Source: a virus (lineage: Duplodnaviria; Caudoviricetes). Taken from it: a stretch of DNA of 31,259 bases. Location: positions 1 to 31,259 of IMG/VR virus record IMGVR_UViG_3300012667_000404; one strand, written 5' to 3'. This document shows, piece by piece, positions 15,020 to 31,259 of this stretch. The first letter of the stretch is position 1. Each line of letters starts with the position of its first letter. The position numbers and the translations under genes were made by a program. The notes beneath the pieces were generated by a model. The model was not told where the DNA came from and searched no databases. It saw nothing but the letters and a program-made list of their open reading frames with translations.

Positions 15020-16806
15020 TGCCAGCGCCAACCATCACACCGCTTCCTACGCCTCCGTCACGGTCCACTGACCCGACGAATTTCGCCATTGAGGCGGATG
15101 CGTTTGTCGCTGCGCTTCCAGAGTTTGTGACGGATGCCAATGCGCAAGCATCATACTTGGACGGCGTGGCGACTGCGGTTGATGCAGATGCGGTGGCGGC
15201 GGCTGCCAGTGCGACTGCTGCGGAAGGCTTTGCGGATGACGCAGAAGCATCTGCTGCTGGCGCTGCGGCTGCTGCGGATGTTTCAGCATGGGTTAGCGGA
15301 ACCACTTACGTCATTGGCGATTGTGTATTTAGCCCTATCGACTTCCAAACATATCGACGCACGACCAATGGCGCTGGAACAACCGACCCCAGTGCGGATG
15401 CGGTTAACTGGTTGGCAATTACAAGCCCGGGCGGAAGCATTTTTAAAGCTATTGCTTCTGGGGTTCTTTCAAACGGATCGACCGTGGCCGTGAACGCTGA
15501 TGGAACCGTTAGCGTTGTGTCTGGCGTGGCTCAGGTGGTCGGGACGCCGAGTGTGTTTAATAGCTCTACTACTAATCACATTTCTGCTACTTATGATGCA
15601 AACTCTCAGCGTGTGATTGTCGCCTATCAGGCTGTCACTGGCTACGGCACTGCTGTTGTCGGCACTGTCTCAGGCACAAGCATTACCTTTGGGACACCGG
15701 TTGTGTTTAAGAGCGCAACTACTACTGTTATTAGTGCGGCCTATGACCCCAACACGCAGAAAGTCGTCATTGCCTACACAAGCACGTTAGGCCGCGCAAT
15801 CGTTGGAACAGTTTCTGGCACGACCATCAGTTTTGGCGCTGAAGTTACGTATGAGAGCGCAGGTGTTATCTACAATACAATTACTTATGACACGAACGCA
15901 CAAAAGGTCGTGTTGGTATATCGAAATGGCTCAAACTTTGGTGCAGCTAGTGTGGGCACTATCTCCGGCACAAGCATCAGCTTTGGCAGTGCGGTTGTAT
16001 TTGCCGCCGTTGGTGACACCAGAGTTATGTCAGCCACTTATGACACGAACGCGCAGCGTGTCGTTATCGCCTACCAAGAATATAACAATTCCAGCTACGG
16101 CACTGCTGTTGTCGGCACTGTGTCAGGCACAAGCATCAGCTTTGGCACACCGGTTGTGTTTAGAAGCGCAGCGATATCACTCGTGTCAGCCACTTACGAC
16201 ACGAACGCACAGAAGGTTGTTATAGCTTACGACGCTTCCGGGGCTGGTAATATTATTGTCGGCACTGTCTCTGGCACAACCATCACCTTTGGTAGTGCGG
16301 TTGTGTTTGCCGCCGGTATCTTGACATACGTTTCTGCTATCTATGACCCGAATGTTCGCAAAATCGTCATTGCTTACAGAGCATCAGGCGCAGGATTTGG
16401 CAATGTTATCGTCGGCACCGTGTCAGGCACAAGCATTAGCTTCAATACTGCGGTTGTGTTTGAGAGCGCGAGCACCAATTGGATCGCGACTGCCTATGAC
16501 ACGAATACGCAAAAAGTAGTTATTGCTTATCAAGATACGGGTAATTCCAGCTACGGGACTGCTGCGGTTTTCCAAAATGAAAATTCTAACTTTAGGAGTT
16601 TTATAGGCTTTAGCAGCGCAGCATACACTGACGGCCAGACAGCAACCATACAGGTTGTTGGCTCCGTTGATGACGCGCAATCTGCACTAGTGGCAGGACA
16701 ATCGTATTATGTGCAGCTTAACGGCACGCTTGGACTGACCCCAGCAACACCCTCTGTCTTTGCTGGGACAGCCGTTTCAGCAACAAAGATCATTGTAAAG
16801 GGCTAA
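15019..16806 (+). CDS. tail fibre / receptor-binding protein with seven ~50-aa repeats (predicted beta-propeller)
   Basis: N-terminal TPLPTPPSRSTDPTNF anchor; repeats of YDxNxQKVVIAY...VGTVSGTSISFG.xVVF. Confidence 0.8.
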   Translation: MPAPTITPLPTPPSRSTDPTNFAIEADAFVAALPEFVTDANAQASYLDGVATAVDADAVAAAASATAAEGFADDAEASAAGAAAAADVSAWVSGTTYVIGDCVFSPIDFQTYRRTTNGAGTTDPSADAVNWLAITSPGGSIFKAIASGVLSNGSTVAVNADGTVSVVSGVAQVVGTPSVFNSSTTNHISATYDANSQRVIVAYQAVTGYGTAVVGTVSGTSITFGTPVVFKSATTTVISAAYDPNTQKVVIAYTSTLGRAIVGTVSGTTISFGAEVTYESAGVIYNTITYDTNAQKVVLVYRNGSNFGAASVGTISGTSISFGSAVVFAAVGDTRVMSATYDTNAQRVVIAYQEYNNSSYGTAVVGTVSGTSISFGTPVVFRSAAISLVSATYDTNAQKVVIAYDASGAGNIIVGTVSGTTITFGSAVVFAAGILTYVSAIYDPNVRKIVIAYRASGAGFGNVIVGTVSGTSISFNTAVVFESASTNWIATAYDTNTQKVVIAYQDTGNSSYGTAAVFQNENSNFRSFIGFSSAAYTDGQTATIQVVGSVDDAQSALVAGQSYYVQLNGTLGLTPATPSVFAGTAVSATKIIVKG

Positions 16807-17059: not shown

Positions 17060-17277
17060 TGGATATGTCATTCGGCCTCGACACGCTGCTGACCGTCATT
17101 GCTGGCATTTTCGCCATCATTGGCGTTTGGACGAAATTGAGCAACCGGCTGGCAATCTTGGAAACCAAACTGGACTTTGGCGATGAGAAGTTTTCTGCCA
17201 TCGATAAGAAGTTTGATGAGGTCATGACGCACCTTCGCCGGATTGAGGACAAGCTAGACAATAAGGCTGACAGATGA
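17059..17277 (+). CDS. single-TM plus coiled-coil protein (holin/antiholin-like candidate)
   Basis: Hydrophobic LLTVIAGIFAIIGVW followed by heptads (RLAILETK, LRRIEDKLD). Confidence 0.65.
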   Translation: MDMSFGLDTLLTVIAGIFAIIGVWTKLSNRLAILETKLDFGDEKFSAIDKKFDEVMTHLRRIEDKLDNKADR

Positions 17278-17771
17278 GTTTCTTGAACGATTTTGAGAGC
17301 AAGGCGGAAGGCGTCAACGACACCGTAGAGTTTGTCATCCGCGTGGCTGTGGTCACGCTTTCCGCTGTCATCCTTGTGGTGGTGGCGGCTTTGGCTATTG
17401 GCCTGTTTGTGCCGAATGAAATGGTAGACAGCACGGCCATTCTTGAAACGATCAACCCGGCCTTCCAGACCATCATCGGTGCGTTTGTCGGTCTGCTGGG
17501 TGGTCTGAGCCTCAACGCCAATGCGCGGGACAAGGACGTGCCGCCCGAAGCGCCATTGGAACTGGACACGCCCGCGCCTGACCCGGTTGTGTCTCATCCA
17601 GTGGACGCAAGCCCTGTTGTCGATCAGGAAACGGATCCTGTGATCGACAACGACGACGACGACGACATGGCCGAATACGAAAAGTATCGCAACGACCTAC
17701 GCTATGACGTTAACGGCGACGGGGTTGTCAGCGACGACGAGATGCCGAACTGGCGTAATCCGGCAGCTTAA
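17274..17771 (+). CDS. two-TM membrane protein with acidic tail and EF-hand-like loop (holin candidate)
   Basis: Two hydrophobic segments, poly-Asp tract, DVNGDGVVSDDE. Confidence 0.65.
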   Translation: MSFLNDFESKAEGVNDTVEFVIRVAVVTLSAVILVVVAALAIGLFVPNEMVDSTAILETINPAFQTIIGAFVGLLGGLSLNANARDKDVPPEAPLELDTPAPDPVVSHPVDASPVVDQETDPVIDNDDDDDMAEYEKYRNDLRYDVNGDGVVSDDEMPNWRNPAA

Positions 17772-17938
17772 TGATGGGCGACCTCTCAACCGTTGAACTC
17801 ATCGGCCAGCTATGGCCGCTTGTTCTGGCCTTCATTTCGCTGGTCATCATCCTTGCGAAAATGGACGTGCGGCTGGCTGTGGTTGAGGAAAAGATCAAGA
17901 CGCTCTTTGAATTGTGGAACAAAGGACAGGACAAATGA
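17771..17938 (+). CDS. small single-TM plus coiled-coil protein, 55 aa (not in ORF track)
   Basis: MMGDLSTVELIGQLWPLVLAFISLVIILAKMDVRLAVVEEKIKTLFELWNKGQDK; coupled at both ends (TAATG, ATGA). Confidence 0.75.
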   Translation: MMGDLSTVELIGQLWPLVLAFISLVIILAKMDVRLAVVEEKIKTLFELWNKGQDK

Positions 17939-18552
17939 GCCTGATTAACTTTCAGAAAAAGATCGGAGTGACGGCAGATGGTGCGTTTGGTCCGGGAACT
18001 TTTAAGCGCGGTGCTGCTTTCTATAAGCTATCACCAAATCGCGCTGCGCATTTTTTTGCTCAAACGGCGCACGAAAGCGGGAATTTCAAGACCTTCTCGG
18101 AGAATTTGAATTATAGCGCCAAAGGGCTTCGCGGCACGTTTGGCAAGTATTTCCCTACCAACCTTTCAGCGCAGATGTATGCGCGCCAGCCGCAGAGGAT
18201 AGCCAATCGCGTCTATGCCAATCGCATGGGCAACGGAGACGCGGCCAGTGGCGACGGCTGGAAGTATCGCGGGCGCGGGGCGCTCCAATTGACTGGCAAG
18301 GAAAATTATGAAGCCTTTGCAAACTACATCGGTCGTCCCGACATCATGTCCAACCCTGATCTGGTTTCTGGTGAACTCTGCTTTGAGAGCGCGCTGTGGT
18401 TCTTCGACAAAAACAGGCTGTGGTCAATCTGCGACCAAGGCATCAACGAAAGGGCCATTCACGCCCTAAGCTCTCGGATCAACGGCAGCAAAAACCCGCA
18501 CGGCCTTGATGATCGACGGGCCAAGACCAAGAAGTTTGCAACATGGGCCTGA
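17935..18552 (+). CDS. endolysin, glycoside hydrolase family 19 with short N-terminal PG-binding element
   Basis: FFAQTAHESG, ENLNYS, YANRMGNG, DGWKYRGRGALQLTGKENY, RING; N-terminal FQKKIGVTADGAFGPGT. Confidence 0.92.
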   Translation: MSLINFQKKIGVTADGAFGPGTFKRGAAFYKLSPNRAAHFFAQTAHESGNFKTFSENLNYSAKGLRGTFGKYFPTNLSAQMYARQPQRIANRVYANRMGNGDAASGDGWKYRGRGALQLTGKENYEAFANYIGRPDIMSNPDLVSGELCFESALWFFDKNRLWSICDQGINERAIHALSSRINGSKNPHGLDDRRAKTKKFATWA

Positions 18553-18944
18553 TGCCCAATCCCTTAATGCTTTACGCAGCGGCTGGCGCTTTGGTTGTCG
18601 GCGCGGCTGCTGGCTACAAGGTGCGCGACTGGCAATGTGACGCAGCATATTCCAAGGCTTTAGAGAAAGCCGAGAAGGAACGTGCAGCCAAGGAAAAGGT
18701 GGTCTTTGATGTTTCCGAAGTTTACGAGGAAGAACGCAATCAAGCCAATGTCGTGGCAACCGAGCGGACCAACACCATACGCGAAATATACAAAACGGCT
18801 CCTGCCGTTCCTGTTGATTGCAGTCCTCCTAATGGTGTTGGCCGGTTGCTCGAAAGCAGTATCAGTGACGCCAATGCCGCGTCCTCCGGCAAATCTGGCG
18901 GCGAATTGTCCGCTGCTGCCCAGCCCGCCAGCCCTGTTGACTGA
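18552..18944 (+). CDS. i-spanin (Rz-like)
   Basis: N-terminal TM, coiled coil and C-terminal Cys; follows the endolysin. Confidence 0.8.
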   Translation: MPNPLMLYAAAGALVVGAAAGYKVRDWQCDAAYSKALEKAEKERAAKEKVVFDVSEVYEEERNQANVVATERTNTIREIYKTAPAVPVDCSPPNGVGRLLESSISDANAASSGKSGGELSAAAQPASPVD

Positions 18945-19053
18945 CCCCGACCGAGCGGTCTGGGAGGCTGACATTATTGCTAAATATGCCGACTGTAGTG
19001 TCAAGCATCGCTTGACAGTGCAAGCATGGTTGAAGGCTTTGGAAGCCAAATAA
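18748..19053 (+). CDS. o-spanin (Rz1-like lipoprotein), overlapping Rz
   Basis: KRLLPFLLIAVLLMVLAG-C lipobox; Pro-rich mature part with two further Cys; start codon uncertain. Confidence 0.8.
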   Translation: MSWQPSGPTPYAKYTKRLLPFLLIAVLLMVLAGCSKAVSVTPMPRPPANLAANCPLLPSPPALLTDPDRAVWEADIIAKYADCSVKHRLTVQAWLKALEAK

Positions 19054-19064
19054 AGGAACCGGAT

Positions 19065-20060
19065 ATGCCAGCAGCTAATGTCACAGATGAAGAATTTATC
19101 GTCGCTTGGGAGCGCGGACAGGGCAGCCCGATTAAGGTTGCAGCCATTCTTGGCATCAAAGAGCGCGGGGTCTATTCGAGGCGGGAGCGATTGGCACAAC
19201 GCGGCATCGTCCTGAAAAGCATTCCATCAGACGGCAGGCCGACCAAATGGACATCTGACGACACTGGGCGCGCATACAAGCGGCAGATCGACCTAAGCAT
19301 TGATACCGGCACGGTGCTTGCCTTCTCTGACGCGCATTTTTGGCCCAATCAGAAGCGCACAGTTGCCAACGAGGCTCTGCTGCTGCTGATCGAGGAATTT
19401 AAGCCGAGGGCCATCTTTGCCAATGGCGACTTATTCGACGGCGCAAGGGTCAGCCGTCATGCGCCTTTGGGCTGGGCTGAATTGCCTTCGGTCAAGGAGG
19501 AGTTGGAAACCTGCCAAGACCGCATTGATGAAATTGAGCAGCGGTTGCCCAAGGGATGCCACAAACTTTGGAACGTGGGCAACCATGATGCGCGCTTCGA
19601 CCGCGCCCTTTGTGTTGGCGCTGCGGAATATGATGGCGTTGTGCAGCGGCTAGAGGAGAAATTTAGCCGCTGGGATTTCACTTGGTCCACGATGATTAAC
19701 GAAAACGTGATGATCAAGCATCGCTACCACAACGGCATTCATGCAGCATATAACAATGCCCTTAAATCCGGTCGCTCAATCGTCACAGGACACCTTCACC
19801 GACTGGCCGTGACACCTTGGGCCGATTACAACGGCAGGCGCTATGGCGTTGATACAGGGACGCTCTCAAACCCGCATGGCCCGCAATTCGACTATGCCGA
19901 GAACAATCCATCCCCGCACACTTCGGGCTTCGCTGTCCTGACGTTTAAGGACGGCTTGCTGCTGCCGCCTGAGTTGGTCGAAGTCATCAATGGCCGCGCA
20001 TATTTTCGCGGCGAATGCGTCTTTGACGGAGGGGTGGACGATGACGATTTCGGCAATTGA
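19065..20060 (+). CDS. calcineurin-like metallophosphoesterase with N-terminal HTH-like region
   Basis: All five motifs present: SDAH, NGDLFD, GNHD, KH, TGHLH. Confidence 0.88.
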   Translation: MPAANVTDEEFIVAWERGQGSPIKVAAILGIKERGVYSRRERLAQRGIVLKSIPSDGRPTKWTSDDTGRAYKRQIDLSIDTGTVLAFSDAHFWPNQKRTVANEALLLLIEEFKPRAIFANGDLFDGARVSRHAPLGWAELPSVKEELETCQDRIDEIEQRLPKGCHKLWNVGNHDARFDRALCVGAAEYDGVVQRLEEKFSRWDFTWSTMINENVMIKHRYHNGIHAAYNNALKSGRSIVTGHLHRLAVTPWADYNGRRYGVDTGTLSNPHGPQFDYAENNPSPHTSGFAVLTFKDGLLLPPELVEVINGRAYFRGECVFDGGVDDDDFGN

Positions 20061-23372: not shown

Positions 23373-23996
23373 TCACTTGCTCCTGATTGCGTTGATAGCG
23401 GCCAAATCCGCCGTGACCTCATCCAGAAATTCACCGATTGCAGCTTCCAATTCCGCAATGCGCTGATCGTCGCGCTCAACCCGCGCCACGAATAATTGCA
23501 AATCCTCCGGCAGCCTTGGGTCATAGGAAACAAAGTCGCACCATTTGCGGTTGGTGCAGGCCATTTGCCACTGCATCTGCGTTAGATATTTGGCTGGCAC
23601 TTTCTGACTGCGCAGCGTGGCAATGTGCGTGGCTGTGTTGGGGCATTTGATTTCGACCAAGCCGTCATCGCCCACCAGCCTGTCCGGGCTGGCATGGGTG
23701 GCCAGCAATGTCGGGTGGAAATAAAGCCCGCACGTCTCGACATCGTTGCCGGTCAAGAAGGCATAAGCGTTTGCTGCGTTGTCCTCTTGGTCGTTGCCCC
23801 ATTGCATCGCCGCGTTGCTGAAAGTCTCCTGCGGCGCTCCTGTAAGGCGTTCTGCAATGATGCGGGCCTTGAGGTTTTCGCGGGATGCGCCCCAGCCACC
23901 TTTAGTGGTGGCAAGGGCTTCGTTGATGGCACTGGCACCAAGAGAGCCGGCGCGGGCTTGCAGCCATTCAGGGCTGCCTTGCACGACATTAAGCAT
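23373..23996 (-). CDS. YqaJ / lambda-exonuclease family recombination nuclease
   Basis: QGSPEWLQAR, ASPDRLV, EIKCP, YLTQMQWQM, WCDFVSYDPR. Confidence 0.93.
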   Translation of the reverse strand: MLNVVQGSPEWLQARAGSLGASAINEALATTKGGWGASRENLKARIIAERLTGAPQETFSNAAMQWGNDQEDNAANAYAFLTGNDVETCGLYFHPTLLATHASPDRLVGDDGLVEIKCPNTATHIATLRSQKVPAKYLTQMQWQMACTNRKWCDFVSYDPRLPEDLQLFVARVERDDQRIAELEAAIGEFLDEVTADLAAINAIRSK

Positions 23997-24324
23997 GATA
24001 ACCTCCAAGCATTTCAAACGCTCTATCAACTGCGATTAAAGCGGCTTCTCTGCGTCGTTGCTGCGTAACTCGCCGCATTGTTTTGCCTTGTTCTTCTCTT
24101 GCCTCATCAATTGCAGCTTTATCTAACAATGGCATAATTCCTTGCATGACTGTGGCCAGCGTATGCAAAACGCTCATTGCGTCGCTTCTGTCCATTGTGC
24201 GCATAACGAGATCCGCACGCTGCAAATAATCCGCCCGAGCAGGCTCTGTTGCGTCTTCCCATTCGTCGCCATGATAATCTTTGAACAATGCCGCTGCGAT
24301 TGCCTCTTTCATCGGATTAAGCAT
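23989..24324 (-). CDS. hypothetical protein
   Basis: Tiles between ERF and the exonuclease with overlaps. Confidence 0.65.
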   Translation of the reverse strand: MLNPMKEAIAAALFKDYHGDEWEDATEPARADYLQRADLVMRTMDRSDAMSVLHTLATVMQGIMPLLDKAAIDEAREEQGKTMRRVTQQRRREAALIAVDRAFEMLGGYHA

Positions 24325-24943
24325 TATCGATCACCTTCTTTGCGAGAGCGGCCTTTGCATGGTCGAACTTATCGGCTGGAAGGGCGTTCAATGCCGCAAT
24401 CTTATAGAAGCGGCACATTCCGGCGATGTCTGTTCCGGTGCTTTCGATAAGCGCCTGCAATTCAAGGAACTGCTGCTGGTTTATAACCGGCGCAGATGGT
24501 GCTGGGGCTGACTTCACCTCATGGGTGTGACCATCTGCATCGTTATCGCCTTCTGTCGGGATGGCAAAAGTCAGAAATGCCACATATTTATAAGCGGCGC
24601 TCATCGCCTTGTTTGTTGATTTATCGCCGCTGTCCATCGCCTCACCAAAGGTTGAAGCAATGTGCTTGCTACCATCCTTGGCTGATACAAAATCAAATTC
24701 AGCATGGACGGTTGTGTAGAACAAAGCGCCACCATTTTTGCTTTGGCGCTCTGAAACCTGCCGGTTAATCATGCGAGGAATAATGACCAGACCATGCTCT
24801 GCCAACAATGGCGAAAGGGCGGCATAAACGTCATCAATGCCCCGAAACATATATCCAGTGCCTTGGGTGTTTTTCCTGTCTTTTGAAATGCCTGTTTTGG
24901 ACAAATCATGCTGGACGGCAGCAATTGCCTTGTAAACTTCCAT
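24317..24943 (-). CDS. erf: ERF-family ssDNA annealing protein
   Basis: YMFRGIDDV, GEAMDSGDKSTNKAMSAAYKY..FAIPTEGDNDAD. Confidence 0.88.
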   Translation of the reverse strand: MEVYKAIAAVQHDLSKTGISKDRKNTQGTGYMFRGIDDVYAALSPLLAEHGLVIIPRMINRQVSERQSKNGGALFYTTVHAEFDFVSAKDGSKHIASTFGEAMDSGDKSTNKAMSAAYKYVAFLTFAIPTEGDNDADGHTHEVKSAPAPSAPVINQQQFLELQALIESTGTDIAGMCRFYKIAALNALPADKFDHAKAALAKKVIDNA

Positions 24944-27371: not shown

Positions 27372-27804
27372 CCATTTCGGGAAGTGCTTCAAGTTTATGG
27401 TCGCTGTGCTGCCCAAGCAGTCGAAGGACGCGCTCGACGGCAAGCTGTTCCTGCAAGCCTACCAGCGGATGTTGCAAGGCTACCCGAAGGACGCAATTAG
27501 CTTTCTGGCCGAGCAATCTATGGCCCGCTGCAAATGGTTCCCGACGATTGCCGAGTGCTTGACCATCTTGAAGGATTGGACCCGAGACGACGACGAAACC
27601 CGCTTCGCGGACAAGGCGCGGCAGATCGTCAGCCGTGAACTTGCAGCGCGGCATGACGACCAAATTGAAATGGAGCGGCGCAACAAGCCAAAGATGACGG
27701 CAGAGGAGATAGCTGGCTTGCCTGATGGCCTTGTCGAGATTGGCTTGAAGTGCGGCGCGCTGCGCAAGCTGGATGACGGCACCATTGTGGACCGCGATGC
27801 CTAG
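27214..27804 (+). CDS. putative helicase loader (lambda P analogue)
   Basis: Follows the initiator; CKWFPTIAECL motif; true start may be downstream. Confidence 0.6.
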   Translation: MEQTALTKMASQQPLTKCSELDALPSRLDDDRLKSLMQSLSRPLPDPTPCSDDHFGKCFKFMVAVLPKQSKDALDGKLFLQAYQRMLQGYPKDAISFLAEQSMARCKWFPTIAECLTILKDWTRDDDETRFADKARQIVSRELAARHDDQIEMERRNKPKMTAEEIAGLPDGLVEIGLKCGALRKLDDGTIVDRDA

Positions 27805-27964
27805 CAACAATGGACGGCGACCGGGTTCGCCCTTGGTCGATATTAAATTGCGCAACGGTCACATTGTCCGAGACACTGACCCGCAGAAATGGCGCTGGAA
27901 GCCTTGGCCAACCGGGCCGCATGACTTTGATATTTTGGTTTATCGGGTAAAAAAGAGCGATTAA
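27797..27964 (+). CDS. hypothetical protein
   Basis: VDIKLRNG..WRW..FDI..YR; overlaps the upstream stop. Confidence 0.6.
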   Translation: MPSNNGRRPGSPLVDIKLRNGHIVRDTDPQKWRWKPWPTGPHDFDILVYRVKKSD

Positions 27965-27973
27965 TCTAATTAA

Positions 27974-28043
27974 ATTGCATTTAGCGTTTGACATGGTTGG
28001 TCAGATGTTTAGAAACAGAGGGGTCAACAGGGCAATCAAGCCC
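27974..28043 (+). promoter_or_regulatory. rightward early promoter with leader hairpin
   Basis: TTGACA (27988)-N16-TAGAAA; GGGC-AATCAA-GCCC hairpin 28030-43 before a GGAG RBS. Confidence 0.7.
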
Positions 28044-28061
28044 GCCAACACGGAGACTGAC

Positions 28062-28223
28062 ATGATTTACATTGTTCGCACATACCGCATCGAGAACGGC
28101 GCACACATTGCCCATCTCGACCGCACTTTTAACACCGCTGCCGAAGCGCGCGACCATGCACTTGCTGCTAATTGCAAGGCATACACACCATTTATCAGCA
28201 CCGTCAGGGAGATTGAAGCATGA
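28062..28223 (+). CDS. hypothetical early protein
   Basis: GGAG RBS; first gene after the promoter. Confidence 0.65.
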   Translation: MIYIVRTYRIENGAHIAHLDRTFNTAAEARDHALAANCKAYTPFISTVREIEA

Positions 28224-28465
28224 TAACCCCGACCATCAACATCAACGGCAGCAGCATTCACGATTTAGTCAATCCGCGCCTAGCAGCAATGGACCACCTT
28301 ATGGCGGCTACCGAAGCACTGCGTCAGACGGCACCGAACGGTCGCGATTACCCCGGTGACCATGAGGGATTGCAGCGCGACCGCGAATTGCACTTTAGAC
28401 GCCTTGAGGAAATCAAATGCTTGCGCGAGGAATTGATGCGCGAGGCTGTCCGCATCAAGTTTTAA
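28220..28465 (+). CDS. hypothetical early protein
   Basis: PTININGSS..APNGRDY; ATGA-coupled. Confidence 0.7.
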   Translation: MITPTININGSSIHDLVNPRLAAMDHLMAATEALRQTAPNGRDYPGDHEGLQRDRELHFRRLEEIKCLREELMREAVRIKF

Positions 28466-28471
28466 CCAAAC

Positions 28472-28487
28472 GGGGGCTTCGGCTCCC
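28472..28487 (+). promoter_or_regulatory. UUCG-tetraloop hairpin with no U-tract
   Basis: GGGGGC-TTCG-GCTCCC, intergenic. Confidence 0.55.
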
Positions 28488-28505
28488 ACTACACAGGAGA
28501 GTAAA

Positions 28506-28835
28506 ATGGCAAAGTTGGATATTGAATATGCAAAGGCAATAGTTGCGGCACATCCGCTCGCTGACAGCGTGACGCTTGAAAATGACGGCAGTCTAATCGT
28601 TTACGCAGCTATTGGTTGCGGTTGGAGTGAAAATGGAGACACATGGGTTGAAACCCGCTTTCCGCCGAGGACTGCGGCAAAGCATTTTATCCTTGAATTA
28701 AGCAAATTGAAGGGCGTTCCAGCTTCTCCAATTGAGGTTGAGGAACTGACCGAGGAAGAAATGCAGGAATATCAAGCCGACTGCGAAGGCGATGCCAAGG
28801 CGCAGATGATGAAGGAGGAAAACGACGATGCGTGA
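28506..28835 (+). CDS. hypothetical acidic protein
   Basis: AGGAG RBS; 109 aa. Confidence 0.7.
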   Translation: MAKLDIEYAKAIVAAHPLADSVTLENDGSLIVYAAIGCGWSENGDTWVETRFPPRTAAKHFILELSKLKGVPASPIEVEELTEEEMQEYQADCEGDAKAQMMKEENDDA

Positions 28836-28953
28836 ACTTAACATGATTGCAGCCGTTTGGCGCGATATGCCAGCAGCCGACAAGGCTTATGGCTTGGCCT
28901 TTATCATTGCCGCACCAGTGGCATTTTTGGCCCTCATGGCGGTTCTGCCGTGA
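28828..28953 (+). CDS. small membrane peptide, 41 aa (not in ORF track)
   Basis: MRELNMIAAVWRDMPAADKAYGLAFIIAAPVAFLALMAVLP; AGGAGG upstream; stop overlaps the next GTG. Confidence 0.6.
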   Translation: MRELNMIAAVWRDMPAADKAYGLAFIIAAPVAFLALMAVLP

Positions 28954-29162
28954 TCGAAACGGGAAAGGATTTGGCGAAGGCAAGGCGGGCAATGAAGATG
29001 TCACTGTCCGACCTTGCCGACGCCTTGCGGATGGGCGCTAATGGAGAGCGCAATCTGAGGCGCTGGGAAAGCGGGGAGACCCCTATGCCCGGTGCTGTTG
29101 GTGTCGCTGTCGAGGCGATGCAGGCGGGTTTTGTGCCAAGCATTAACGAGGACATTTATTGA
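28950..29162 (+). CDS. XRE-family HTH protein
   Basis: LAKARRAMKMSLSDLADAL..ERNLRRWESGETPMP. Confidence 0.8.
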   Translation: MIETGKDLAKARRAMKMSLSDLADALRMGANGERNLRRWESGETPMPGAVGVAVEAMQAGFVPSINEDIY

Positions 29163-29174
29163 GGAGATAGAAAA

Positions 29175-29309
29175 ATGGATATTGTGATATTTTTTCTGAC
29201 CACCGCAGCGGCTTTTTGCTCCGGTTACGTGATTGGCGATGCAAGGCAAAAGGCATCAAGCAAGCCGACACGCGGGCCTGATGGAAGATTTGCAAAGCGC
29301 AGCAAGTAA
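29175..29309 (+). CDS. small membrane-anchored peptide, 44 aa (not in ORF track)
   Basis: MDIVIFFLTTAAAFCSGYVIG..RGPDGRFAK; GAGGAG RBS. Confidence 0.6.
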   Translation: MDIVIFFLTTAAAFCSGYVIGDARQKASSKPTRGPDGRFAKRSK

Positions 29310-29326
29310 CAAGAAGGGGAGTGATT

Positions 29327-29623
29327 ATGGACATTTTCGATAAAATTCGCGGTTGGGCAGAAGCCCGGAACCTGATTGAAGGCAGCAATCCGACCGCCCA
29401 GCTTATCAAGCTACGGGAGGAAATGGAGGAACTGACGCAGGCTATTATCGCAGACGATGACGCCGAGTTTATCGACGCCATTGGGGATTGCGTTGTCGTG
29501 CTAACCATCATAGCCCGCCAAAAGGGCTATGCCATTGAAGATTGCATCGCATCCGCATGGCTCGAAATCAAAGACCGCAAGGGCAAGATGGTGGGCGGCA
29601 TTTTCGTAAAGGATGCGGGATGA
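29327..29623 (+). CDS. MazG-like nucleotide pyrophosphohydrolase
   Basis: KLREEMEEL..DAIGD..V.L; AWLEIKDRKG. Confidence 0.85.
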   Translation: MDIFDKIRGWAEARNLIEGSNPTAQLIKLREEMEELTQAIIADDDAEFIDAIGDCVVVLTIIARQKGYAIEDCIASAWLEIKDRKGKMVGGIFVKDAG

Positions 29624-29853
29624 ACCAGAAGCACCCTTGGGAAGAAGCCAAGGACCGCATCGAAGCCCAAGCGGCAGAGATTGAGCGGTTGCGTGAGGCG
29701 TTGGAAAAAGCCGCGATCAATTTGGCCCATCTTGGCGGCCAGATTGAAGCTAGTTTTGCGATAAGCGGAACCCTCCGCGCAGAACAGGCAATGATAGCGC
29801 GTCATATGAGCGACGAAGCCCGCGCAGCCCTAGCAGGAAAGGCAGAGCAATGA
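29620..29853 (+). CDS. hypothetical coiled-coil protein ending in repeat-encoded LAGKAEQ
   Basis: ATGA-coupled; AAEIERLREAL..ARAAL. Confidence 0.7.
   Translation: MNQKHPWEEAKDRIEAQAAEIERLREALEKAAINLAHLGGQIEASFAISGTLRAEQAMIARHMSDEARAALAGKAEQ
29830..29853 (+). repeat. 24-bp boundary repeat, copy 1
   Basis: CTAGCAGGAAAGGCAGAGCAATGA. Confidence 0.97.
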
Positions 29854-30209
29854 CGTTCTGTAACGAGCATGCGGTCAAAGCGGTTCGCAAGAACCATTTC
29901 TGCGAAGGGTGCGGGAAGTATGTCCTTATCGGTGAACCGGCAATCAGGTGGACAGGCATAGGCGAAGATGGATTTGCCAGTGTGATCTACCACCCGGAAT
30001 GCCGTGAAGCCGAGGTCTACATGAACCGGGAGATAAACAGTTTCGAATGGTGGCCGTTGAACAGCCATGAAGAAGATGACTGGCCTTGGCTGATGGACAA
30101 GTTCCCGGCTGTCGCGGCCCGCTTCAACATCACGCCTGAACGCTACAAAGAATATCAGGAACGATATGCGGCTGCGTGGCACAATCTAGCAGGAAAGGCA
30201 GAGCAATGA
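29850..30209 (+). CDS. hypothetical Zn-binding protein (cassette 1), ending LAGKAEQ
   Basis: HFCEGCG..YHPEC; starts in repeat 1 and stops in repeat 2. Confidence 0.72.
   Translation: MTFCNEHAVKAVRKNHFCEGCGKYVLIGEPAIRWTGIGEDGFASVIYHPECREAEVYMNREINSFEWWPLNSHEEDDWPWLMDKFPAVAARFNITPERYKEYQERYAAAWHNLAGKAEQ
30186..30209 (+). repeat. 24-bp boundary repeat, copy 2
   Basis: CTAGCAGGAAAGGCAGAGCAATGA. Confidence 0.97.
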
Positions 30210-30235
30210 TTTTTAACCAAGAAGGAGAAGTACAG

Positions 30236-30466
30236 ATGAATACCCAAACTTATGGCGAGAAGGCAGTCGGTCTTTCGTTTAACCCTAGCAACGACAGTTT
30301 GGTCGATAGCGTTAAGCGTCAATACGCAAGGATCATTGATCATTTTCACGTGCTGCGGTGCGCTGATGGCGCAAGCGATGAAACCCGTCGCCTTTGTTCA
30401 ATTGCCATTACGGAAGCGCAGTCAGCGCAGATGTGGGCAGTTAAGGCTATCACTTGGCGTGATTAA
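30236..30466 (+). CDS. Acb2/Tad1-hairpin-like protein, candidate immune-signal sponge (cassette 2)
   Basis: GEKAVGLSFNPS..VD.VK..A.IID...RRLCSIAITEAQSAQMWAVKAITW; in-frame upstream ATG at 30206 inside the repeat. Confidence 0.6.
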   Translation: MNTQTYGEKAVGLSFNPSNDSLVDSVKRQYARIIDHFHVLRCADGASDETRRLCSIAITEAQSAQMWAVKAITWRD

Positions 30467-30496
30467 ATGTGTCGGGGGCCTTTACCCCCGCACAAC

Positions 30497-30520
30497 CTAG
30501 CAGGAAAGGCAGAGCAATGA
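30497..30520 (+). repeat. 24-bp boundary repeat, copy 3
   Basis: CTAGCAGGAAAGGCAGAGCAATGA. Confidence 0.97.
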
Positions 30521-30702
30521 CCGACATCTACGAAGACATCCGCATCGTTGTCCAGCGCCACCGCGAACAGGCAGCAGCAGAGGAGCGCGCCAAGATCGTG
30601 GCGTATCTGCTGAACGAGCAGCGGGAATATCCCGGCACGGAATACTCAGGGTTCGCAGCGATGATCGCGGAAATGATAAGCGCAAAGGAGCATTTGAAAT
30701 GA
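30517..30702 (+). CDS. hypothetical protein
   Basis: Starts at the ATG of repeat 3; AAAEERAKIVAYL. Confidence 0.7.
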   Translation: MTDIYEDIRIVVQRHREQAAAEERAKIVAYLLNEQREYPGTEYSGFAAMIAEMISAKEHLK

Positions 30703-30881
30703 TGATCGAGATCGACCCATCCATGCTCGACGGTCTTGTGCGCGCATGGCTTAAGGACACGCTGCAAATCATCGAAAGCAATCTTGCCCATGATTACGTC
30801 CATCCAGAGGATGAGAAGACGTATAAGAAGGACATCAAGGCGGTGAAGCGACTGCTGGATTATGTGGGAGAGGCACTTTGA
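30699..30881 (+). CDS. hypothetical protein
   Basis: AGGAG RBS; ATGA-coupled. Confidence 0.65.
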   Translation: MMIEIDPSMLDGLVRAWLKDTLQIIESNLAHDYVHPEDEKTYKKDIKAVKRLLDYVGEAL

Positions 30882-30994
30882 CCAGCGAACAACAAGCGAA
30901 GCGCATCGAGCAGCTAGAGGCAGCATTAAAGCGCATTGCAGCAGGATGGCCCAAGCCAATGCAGCTTGCGCGGGAAACACTGGCGCAGAAATGA
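30878..30994 (+). CDS. small hypothetical protein, 38 aa, TTG start (not in ORF track)
   Basis: MTSEQQAKRIEQLEAALKRIAAGWPKPMQLARETLAQK; GGGAGAGG RBS; TTGA overlap. Confidence 0.55.
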   Translation: MTSEQQAKRIEQLEAALKRIAAGWPKPMQLARETLAQK

Positions 30995-31017
30995 GCCTTC
31001 TGGCATAAGGTGCAAAG
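30963..31017. repeat. 55-bp exact direct repeat, copy 2
   Basis: Identical to 1-55. Confidence 0.97.
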
Positions 31018-31033
31018 TTATTAGAGGGCGCAA

Positions 31034-31259
31034 ATGACAAATCTGATTATTGAACAACGCACGGTCGCCGGGTTAATCCCTTATGCTGCAAACAGCCGAA
31101 CGCACAGCGATGCGCAGGTTGCGCAGATTGCGGCGAGTATCAAAGAGTTTGGCTGGACAAACCCCATTCTGATTGACGGCGATAACAGCATTATCGCTGG
31201 GCATGGACGGCTGCTGGCTGCGCGCAAATTGGGTATGGACGAGGTGCCTTGCATTGTGC
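31034..31259 (+). CDS. ParB/Srx N-terminal domain protein, truncated by window end (often fused to a DNA methyltransferase)
   Basis: MTNLIIEQRTVAGLIPYAANSRTHSDAQVAQIAASIKEFGWTNPILID..IIAGHGRLLAARKLG. Confidence 0.85.
   Translation, partial: MTNLIIEQRTVAGLIPYAANSRTHSDAQVAQIAASIKEFGWTNPILIDGDNSIIAGHGRLLAARKLGMDEVPCIV

Follow-up and report, generated by a model that had tools for sequence, protein, structure and literature searches.

Short sequence joints with variable flanks between and within small genes of an aquatic tailed phage

The locus and its two cassettes

The window, by which we mean the whole stretch of DNA analysed here, is an IMG/VR virus record of 31,259 bases (84% complete) from a tailed phage encoding terminase, portal, a Gp13-like capsid protein, tape measure and a GH19 endolysin. 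SSB, NinB, Erf, a RecE-like exonuclease, RusA and a lambda-O-like replication protein are also encoded; an earlier note on this DNA had listed an ERF protein and an exonuclease, and both genes were confirmed. From the replication genes to the small terminase runs a series of small + strand genes with ATGA overlaps, in which a 24-bp sequence, termed joint B, recurs. Metagenome runs holding parts of this locus are labelled aquatic or freshwater. The region is absent from cultured phages, as judged by blastn (eight weak partial matches) and tblastn (none). Its features, together with two context genes, are:

23373..24029, − strand: RecE-like exonuclease (context)
24317..24943, − strand: Erf-like ssDNA annealing protein (context; candidate recombinase)
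29327..29623, + strand: MazG-like pyrophosphatase, upstream in the same gene run as the joint region
29620..29853, + strand: 77-aa coiled-coil family member with joint B as its tail; no Pfam match over cut-off, no PHROG match
29830..29853, + strand: joint B copy 1 (the upstream gene's last seven codons and stop, an SD-like stretch, the next gene's ATG)
29850..30209, + strand: cassette 1 gene, 119 aa, Cys/His-rich N-terminus
30186..30209, + strand: joint B copy 2, within a 31-nt match to copy 3 that begins at 30179
30236..30466, + strand: cassette 2, a 76-aa Acb2/Tad1 hairpin-family protein (PF24729), candidate immune-signal sponge
30467-30520, + strand: mini-ORF of 17 codons from the cassette-2 stop to copy 3, spanning the GC-rich hairpin and closed by copy 3
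30468..30494, + strand: GC-rich hairpin with no U-run (z −2.66; 0/200 shuffles equally stable)
30497..30520, + strand: joint B copy 3, within a 31-nt match to copy 2 that begins at 30490
30699..30881, + strand: conserved 60-aa gene, the unbiased anchor for choosing loci

The 24-mer is exact at 29830, 30186 and 30497 (spacings of 356 and 311), a fourth copy was not found in the window at up to three mismatches, and 100 shuffles gave no matches. Between copies 2 and 3 the match extends to 31 nt and has a single mismatch, copies 1 and 3 are identical over 26 nt, and in many relatives the shared block reaches around 12 nt further 5′. Every copy contains an overlapping ATGA, and a purine-rich SD-like stretch ends 7 nt 5′ of the ATG. 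The genes stopping at 29853 and 30209 both end in LAGKAEQ, the remainder of the two being unrelated. The earlier note is thus upheld in its description of three exact 24-bp copies, of a stop/SD-like/start module, of the 31-bp extension and of a common ending on two unrelated proteins. One point needs refining: the cassette-2 gene stops at 30466, before copy 3, and the 17-codon mini-ORF that follows it would keep translation coupled to the next gene. No promoter-like site was found on the + strand in 27800-31259, and joint B itself holds neither a sigma-70-like promoter nor a stem-loop terminator.

The cassette 1 protein has no named family, and its Atlas matches are to hypothetical viral clusters only. 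Just two homologues were found, at 85% protein identity to the window and identical to each other over the aligned stretch. Both (L189/L190) sit between copies of a different junction allele, where genes end AALGE-x-x, and their tail differs; identity to the window begins at the start codon and stops around 13 nt before copy 2. The L189 locus (712-2586) is a parallel array with this other allele, with four consecutive genes ending AALGE-x-x and two ending EEHLK.

The cassette-2 protein scores 38.4 bits against the Acb2/Tad1 hairpin domain PF24729 (cut-off 27, E 1.4e-9) and is predicted to form two long antiparallel helices (pLDDT 94.6); in both respects it resembles the Acb2/Tad1 sponges. A profile search gave a weak match to T4 Vs.4 (E 0.061), and the model aligns with Vs.4 (7uq2) at Z 7.0 (rmsd 2.9, 62 residues aligned), tied with unrelated helical hairpins. 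Foldseek returned no match at E≤0.001, a single-sequence PDB search returned none, and the structural searches did not single out Acb2. As a sponge the protein would be expected to form a hexamer binding cyclic-nucleotide or gcADPR signals; Acb2 homologues vary in target, CBASS or Thoeris, according to the accessible text of bioRxiv 10.1101/2025.08.24.671296.

As the earlier note had seen, the cassette-2 gene keeps its own AGGAG and ATG (30236) in frame behind the module ATG at 30206, a start at which would add ten codons. Among the best 80 of its 293 relatives none has the module within five mismatches, and these 80 end natively at the same residue as the window protein; in some relatives there is a comparable leader, or the stop is followed by a hairpin. 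The missing module and the common native end argue for a self-contained gene onto which the joint was grafted at both sides, in agreement with the proposed capture of foreign genes including an anti-defence candidate. The GC-rich hairpin at 30468..30494 probably arrived together with the gene.

Two further repeats were noted in the window. An exact 55-nt repeat (1-55 and 30963-31017) leads to the small terminase at the start of the contig and to a ParB-like N-terminal gene (31034 onward, cut) at its end. The direct terminase form is found in run X3 and the ParB form in run X1; in L007 the same upstream gene is followed by a methylase, so that this repeat is either another optional-gene junction or a population bubble. 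Around seven degenerate repeats of 144-156 nt lie at 15581-16530 in a 595-aa tail-region gene, and are also present in G004.

Joint B as a gene-family tail, and its flanks elsewhere

Joint B is the DNA-conserved tail of a small coiled-coil gene family together with the start of the next gene. Family members consist of a variable N-part, the EAQAAEIERLR coiled-coil, a variable middle and ARAALAGKAEQ; 29 of the 68 distinct contexts of the internal motif end in AGKAEQ. Eight other module-to-module intervals were found (197-1269 bp) and seven of them hold the family's internal motif, hence most of these ‘cassettes’ are tandem paralogues. The module is therefore the C-terminus of a paralogous family and not the dedicated cassette delimiter that the earlier note had taken it for, and the window is unusual in having two unrelated passengers between module copies. 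The 1269-bp interval, between two exact copies at L012:2501-3793, holds several genes including one of the Mom DNA-modification family.

The joint is conserved at the level of DNA. A scan for LAGKAEQ-stop written in any codons gave 22 sites, of which 16 are exact (two duplicate rows of one contig were dropped). In the shared endolysin, codon agreement at identical residues is 60-68% in eight genomes and 32% in a ninth. Codon choice in joint B is partly forced by the SD-like stretch and the ATG; with the four free positions at the endolysin four-fold identity of 0.46-0.68, a full match would be expected at an estimated 5-20% of sites, compared with the 73% observed. At 12 loci picked by the downstream anchor gene, six carry the module at 0-1 mismatch and six have nothing closer than seven; at four of the six module-bearing loci, DNA identity in the anchor gene is as low as 72-73%.

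These data bear on the idea that LAGKAEQ is a functional binding or degradation peptide, added to many proteins by selection. The 29/68 family members ending in AGKAEQ and the acquisition of the tail by unrelated proteins would suit such a tag, but the codon choice is nearly invariant, other tails (ALGETE/K, EKLK, EHLK, GFGK) fill the same role, and copy 3 comes after a gene that does not use the LAGKAEQ tail. We consider a protein-level tag extremely improbable.

Exact joint B was found in 13 stretches of 12 IMG/VR contigs, in 23 metagenome stretches (some from the same contigs) and in two short MAG contigs, with one to three copies per carrier genome. Allowing up to three mismatches, and after identical contexts were collapsed, there are 45 distinct sites, at which 28 left flank families meet 27-28 right ones in 40 pairings. 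The gene downstream of the module in the window follows the module behind four left families (the window, L007, L122 and L123). L007 is an empty site: 37 nt match the left edge of copy 1 at 100% and are followed directly by the downstream gene at 96%. The search of the 24-mer in phage and metagenomic contigs that the earlier note had called for found gene content at the module to vary between relatives, and the 40 pairings and the empty site bear out its view that genes are gained and lost at the module.

Where the left gene is common and the right is not, divergence begins 0-7 nt from the end of the motif in 34/34 pairs, and where the right gene is common it begins within 12 nt of the gene start in 44/47, in a test that is partly circular because the flank families were defined on nearby sequence. 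Control windows within genes gave few sites and at most two right-flank families, which makes them a weak control. The pairings at joint B include no closed four-way set; under random pairing the expectation is 1.06, and 35% of trials yield none. A slight residual linkage is present: six of 40 left-sharing pairs share the right gene as well (random 2.1, 95th percentile 5).

The main rival to recombination at the joints is selection alone acting on random junctions. Rare illegitimate recombination would occur anywhere, only products that keep RBS, stop and start would survive, and the joint would be a recently spread gene tail and no favoured site of crossover. The left breakpoints of joint B fit this, being nested at variable distances before the 24-mer (0-12 nt, three at 37), as does the gain of the cassette 1 tail around 13 nt upstream of the motif; the paralogues of one family in 7/8 other intervals and the lack of a recombinase common to the carriers point the same way. 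Its weakness lies in synonymous sites that are homogeneous across unrelated genomes, and above all in the intragenic joints A and C described below, where there is no RBS or stop to protect and yet the flanks are many-to-many, with a full 2 × 3 set. It fits these intragenic joints badly, and we judge it rather unlikely.

The pairings could also be artefacts of assembly, the flanks of 24-50-nt blocks shared by co-occurring phages having been mis-joined to give a chimeric tandem order in the window and chimeric pairings. Contig depth at the joints in runs X1, X2 and X4 lies far above that of the flanks, a pile-up which indicates that many carriers co-occur. Neither cassette-2 junction is bridged by a contig in runs X1-X6, although missing cover there proves nothing, and the ends of the window carry the unresolved 55-nt repeat. 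Against this, the copies share at most 26 exact nt, which is less than the length of the reads and of the 55-nt end overlap (the inferred k-mer size), and while mis-pairing is possible, 28 unrelated flanks are not something an assembler can create. Furthermore, cassette 1 with both copies was assembled independently on single contigs in two runs of one study (X1 and X2, with three differences and another upstream gene) and in two overlapping pieces in a second (X3), and the cassette-2 body was found in run X4 with three differences in 202 nt. Chimerism could change the order in the window or some pairings, not the variety of flanks, and as a full account it is very unlikely.

Further joints, their carriers and recombination enzymes

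The single module of the earlier note proved to be one of several. A k-mer census revealed about eight such blocks in this region, located at junctions (tails EHLK, GFGK, GETE and EKLK) and inside genes. The others defined in the window, with the gene that holds joint C, are:

29653..29703, + strand: joint A, intragenic, EAQAAEIERLR codons; 68 contexts, 48 left × 50 right families, 68 pairings
30517..30702, + strand: 61-aa mosaic gene, N-half and C-half each found with other partners
30571..30610, + strand: joint C, intragenic, AAEERAKIVA codons; complete 2 × 3 half-gene combinations
30682..30702, + strand: joint D, at a further stop/start junction with AKEHLK tail; 15 left × 11 right families

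All 68 contexts of joint A are different pairings. At joint C, two N-halves and three C-halves occur in 6/6 combinations (the window, L007, L123, L002, L003 and L133). Over 48 nt, identity is 94-100% between matching halves, apart from one N-half at 73%, and 25-33% between non-matching ones. Simple descent cannot account for this full set. Four-way cycles number zero at joints A, B and D, as is often the case under random pairing. The joint A pattern had no matches in GTDB genomes.

Only five of 75 joint-associated proteins scored over a Pfam cut-off, to Lar (twice), Mom, HNH and an N6/N4 methylase, and the remaining 70 to none. The Lar restriction-alleviation domains at L118:349-648 (−) and L177:1893-2240 (−) are the N-part of shuffled-family genes. 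The HNH endonuclease gene at L007:1474-2004 has the GFGK junction tail as its end; a mobile nuclease gene, too, thus lies between joints.

For genome comparison 17 of 22 records were fetched; they had been picked via the motifs or the anchor gene and are thus not a random sample. Among these 17, the capsid, portal and tape measure of the window are common only to G013, which has joint A and lacks joint B. Exact joint B is present in G001 to G006, of which G001, G003 and G004 have three different terminase/capsid sets. Most of the fetched genomes match the window at 75-79% in the lysis region and mostly at 85-100% in the joints, and in each genome joints A-D lie within around 2 kb on one strand. 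In G001 an anti-restriction protein (phrog_7245; L191:14264-15118, −) is encoded a few kb from the joint region. The lysis region of the window (17274-20030; endolysin and metallophosphoesterase), found at 75-79% in phages with unrelated head and tail genes, is a possible marker of a common host. A host search based on the endolysin pointed to no single host, the matches being short contigs in MAGs from five taxa, Sphingorhabdus among them.

Searches for annealing proteins in 18 genomes found ERF in four, Sak4-like in two, and neither RecT nor Rad52 in any; the complete carriers G001 and G009 had no match to any of the four families. The tie to ERF made by the earlier note is therefore not sustained. 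Tyrosine integrase (PF00589) or serine resolvase was found in 0/5 genomes searched, four of them at least 96% complete and the fifth the 84% complete window, in keeping with the description of the system as integrase-free.

A site-specific, integron-like system, with the 24-mer as the target of a phage or host recombinase that inserts or excises cassettes, might be suggested by direct repeats around single genes, by the 16/22 exact sites and by the 31-nt near-duplication flanking cassette 2. The absence of an integrase or resolvase from the five genomes argues against it, as do the properties of the joint itself: on either strand copies 1 and 2 fold less stably than their shuffles (z +1.2 to +1.7) and form no attC-type hairpin, the sequence is not palindromic, and only copy 3 has a hairpin in front of it. 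In addition, at least eight unrelated sequences show the same behaviour, with breakpoints that are not at one fixed base. The integron-like mechanism of the earlier note accordingly finds no support in fold or enzyme, and we give it hardly any credence.

Interpretation and comparison with known systems

Collectively our data show that the joints are identical between unrelated phages, that their flanks pair many-to-many, that breakpoints lie at the joints, that sites exist both empty and filled, and that half-genes occur in different combinations. The explanation we favour, and think probable, is that joint B and several joints of 20-50 nt are short homologies through which genes and half-genes are exchanged, gained and lost by general recombination. 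Recombination at the joints is what we infer from these patterns, as follows. Phages carrying the joints would co-infect one host, as the shared lysis region suggests, and crossovers within the 24-50-nt joints could be the work of whatever recombinase the phage or host provides. Such crossovers would always be in register, so that an incoming gene would receive stop, RBS and start and the operon would stay translated. In-register, translated products would be selected, and repeated exchange would keep the joints homogeneous. A foreign gene such as that of the Acb2/Tad1 family would enter once, by a microhomology event that grafts a joint at each side, and would then be movable as a unit. Several points weigh against this explanation: all the sequences are metagenomic assemblies, selection alone would likewise place breakpoints at gene boundaries, joint B shows no closed four-way set and a slight residual linkage, and the two complete carriers G001 and G009 gave no match to the four annealing-protein families. 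Lengths of 24-40 nt are, moreover, short for efficient homologous recombination.

It is possible, if somewhat doubtful, that phages of different virion types in one aquatic host use a common ‘grammar’ of around eight joints for enzyme-independent, in-frame shuffling of genes and domains, giving a communal library of small proteins that takes up and passes on anti-defence modules (Acb2/Tad1-like, Lar and Mom).

Whether phage mosaicism arises via targeted exchange at short linkers or via random illegitimate recombination followed by selection is an old open question. In the accessible text of PMC3029335, short boundary sequences could not be found at most mosaic boundaries. The present locus offers a sharply delimited case that is open to testing: its joints can be named, one site is empty, the half-genes form a full factorial, and the carriers differ in having unrelated capsids. 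Should crossovers concentrate in the joints, this would explain a fast spread of small anti-defence genes and of chimeric proteins among the phages of one host, and the joints would serve as handles for finding candidate anti-defence genes among dozens of unannotated neighbours.

Integrons (IntI, attI and attC) hold tandem single genes between repeats, which are gained and lost as units. The joints resemble them in that single-gene units are gained and lost, as in the empty site L007 and in cassette 1 with its other neighbours. Unlike integrons they have no integrase and no attC-like hairpin, and they occur inside reading frames.

A closer likeness is to the PeSLs of the T4-type phages RB49 and phi1. 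According to the accessible text of Arbiol et al. 2010 (PMC2839356), these are short repeats in a hyperplastic region, proposed as sites of homologous recombination for the integrase-free insertion, deletion and replacement of small genes. They span the upstream stop to the SD and start, and their authors, too, draw the comparison with integrons. The same text describes them as intergenic, with a sigma-70 promoter and stem-loop, in around 50 copies per genome and with mini-circles. At joint B, too, the repeat bounds indels and replacements of small genes; by contrast, joint B lies in coding sequence, has neither promoter nor stem-loop and is present in one to three copies per genome. Joint B also differs in being common to unrelated phage types and in having intragenic partners, as far as this source describes the PeSLs.

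In the lambdoid linkers (Botstein 1980, as cited in the accessible text of PMC2839356; boundary sequences in that of PMC3029335), short conserved module borders target homologous exchange and place the module correctly. Similarities to this picture are joints far more conserved than their flanks, phages that are dissimilar, and breakpoints at the joint (in the partly circular test). The differences, within what these sources describe, are that the modules here are single small genes and half-genes, that the joint doubles as tail, RBS and start, and that tandem copies occur in one genome. The homeologous ‘shoulders’ of around 200 bp at 64% identity reported in the accessible text of PMC2327257 are a different signature from our short, near-identical joints.

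The architecture of the joint family resembles that of the Ea22/Ead-like lambdoid proteins, whose variable N- and C-parts surround a conserved coiled-coil and in which a C-terminal K/RGE motif, short and ‘of unknown significance’, is common to otherwise unrelated tails (PMC7093339, accessible text). The motif is not treated as a DNA joint in that text; by analogy it might be one. None of the 75 proteins scanned gave an Ea22-type Pfam match. A named ‘Enterobacteria phage motif’ was found neither by search nor in the accessible text of bioRxiv 10.1101/2023.04.06.535777, and no comparison with it is drawn. Our literature search, with incomplete coverage of subscription journals, found nothing relevant on coding stop/start joints or intragenic linkers, which may nonetheless be published. 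Set beside these systems, the locus is best read as linker-guided homologous shuffling, akin to the PeSLs and to boundary sequences and not to the integron.
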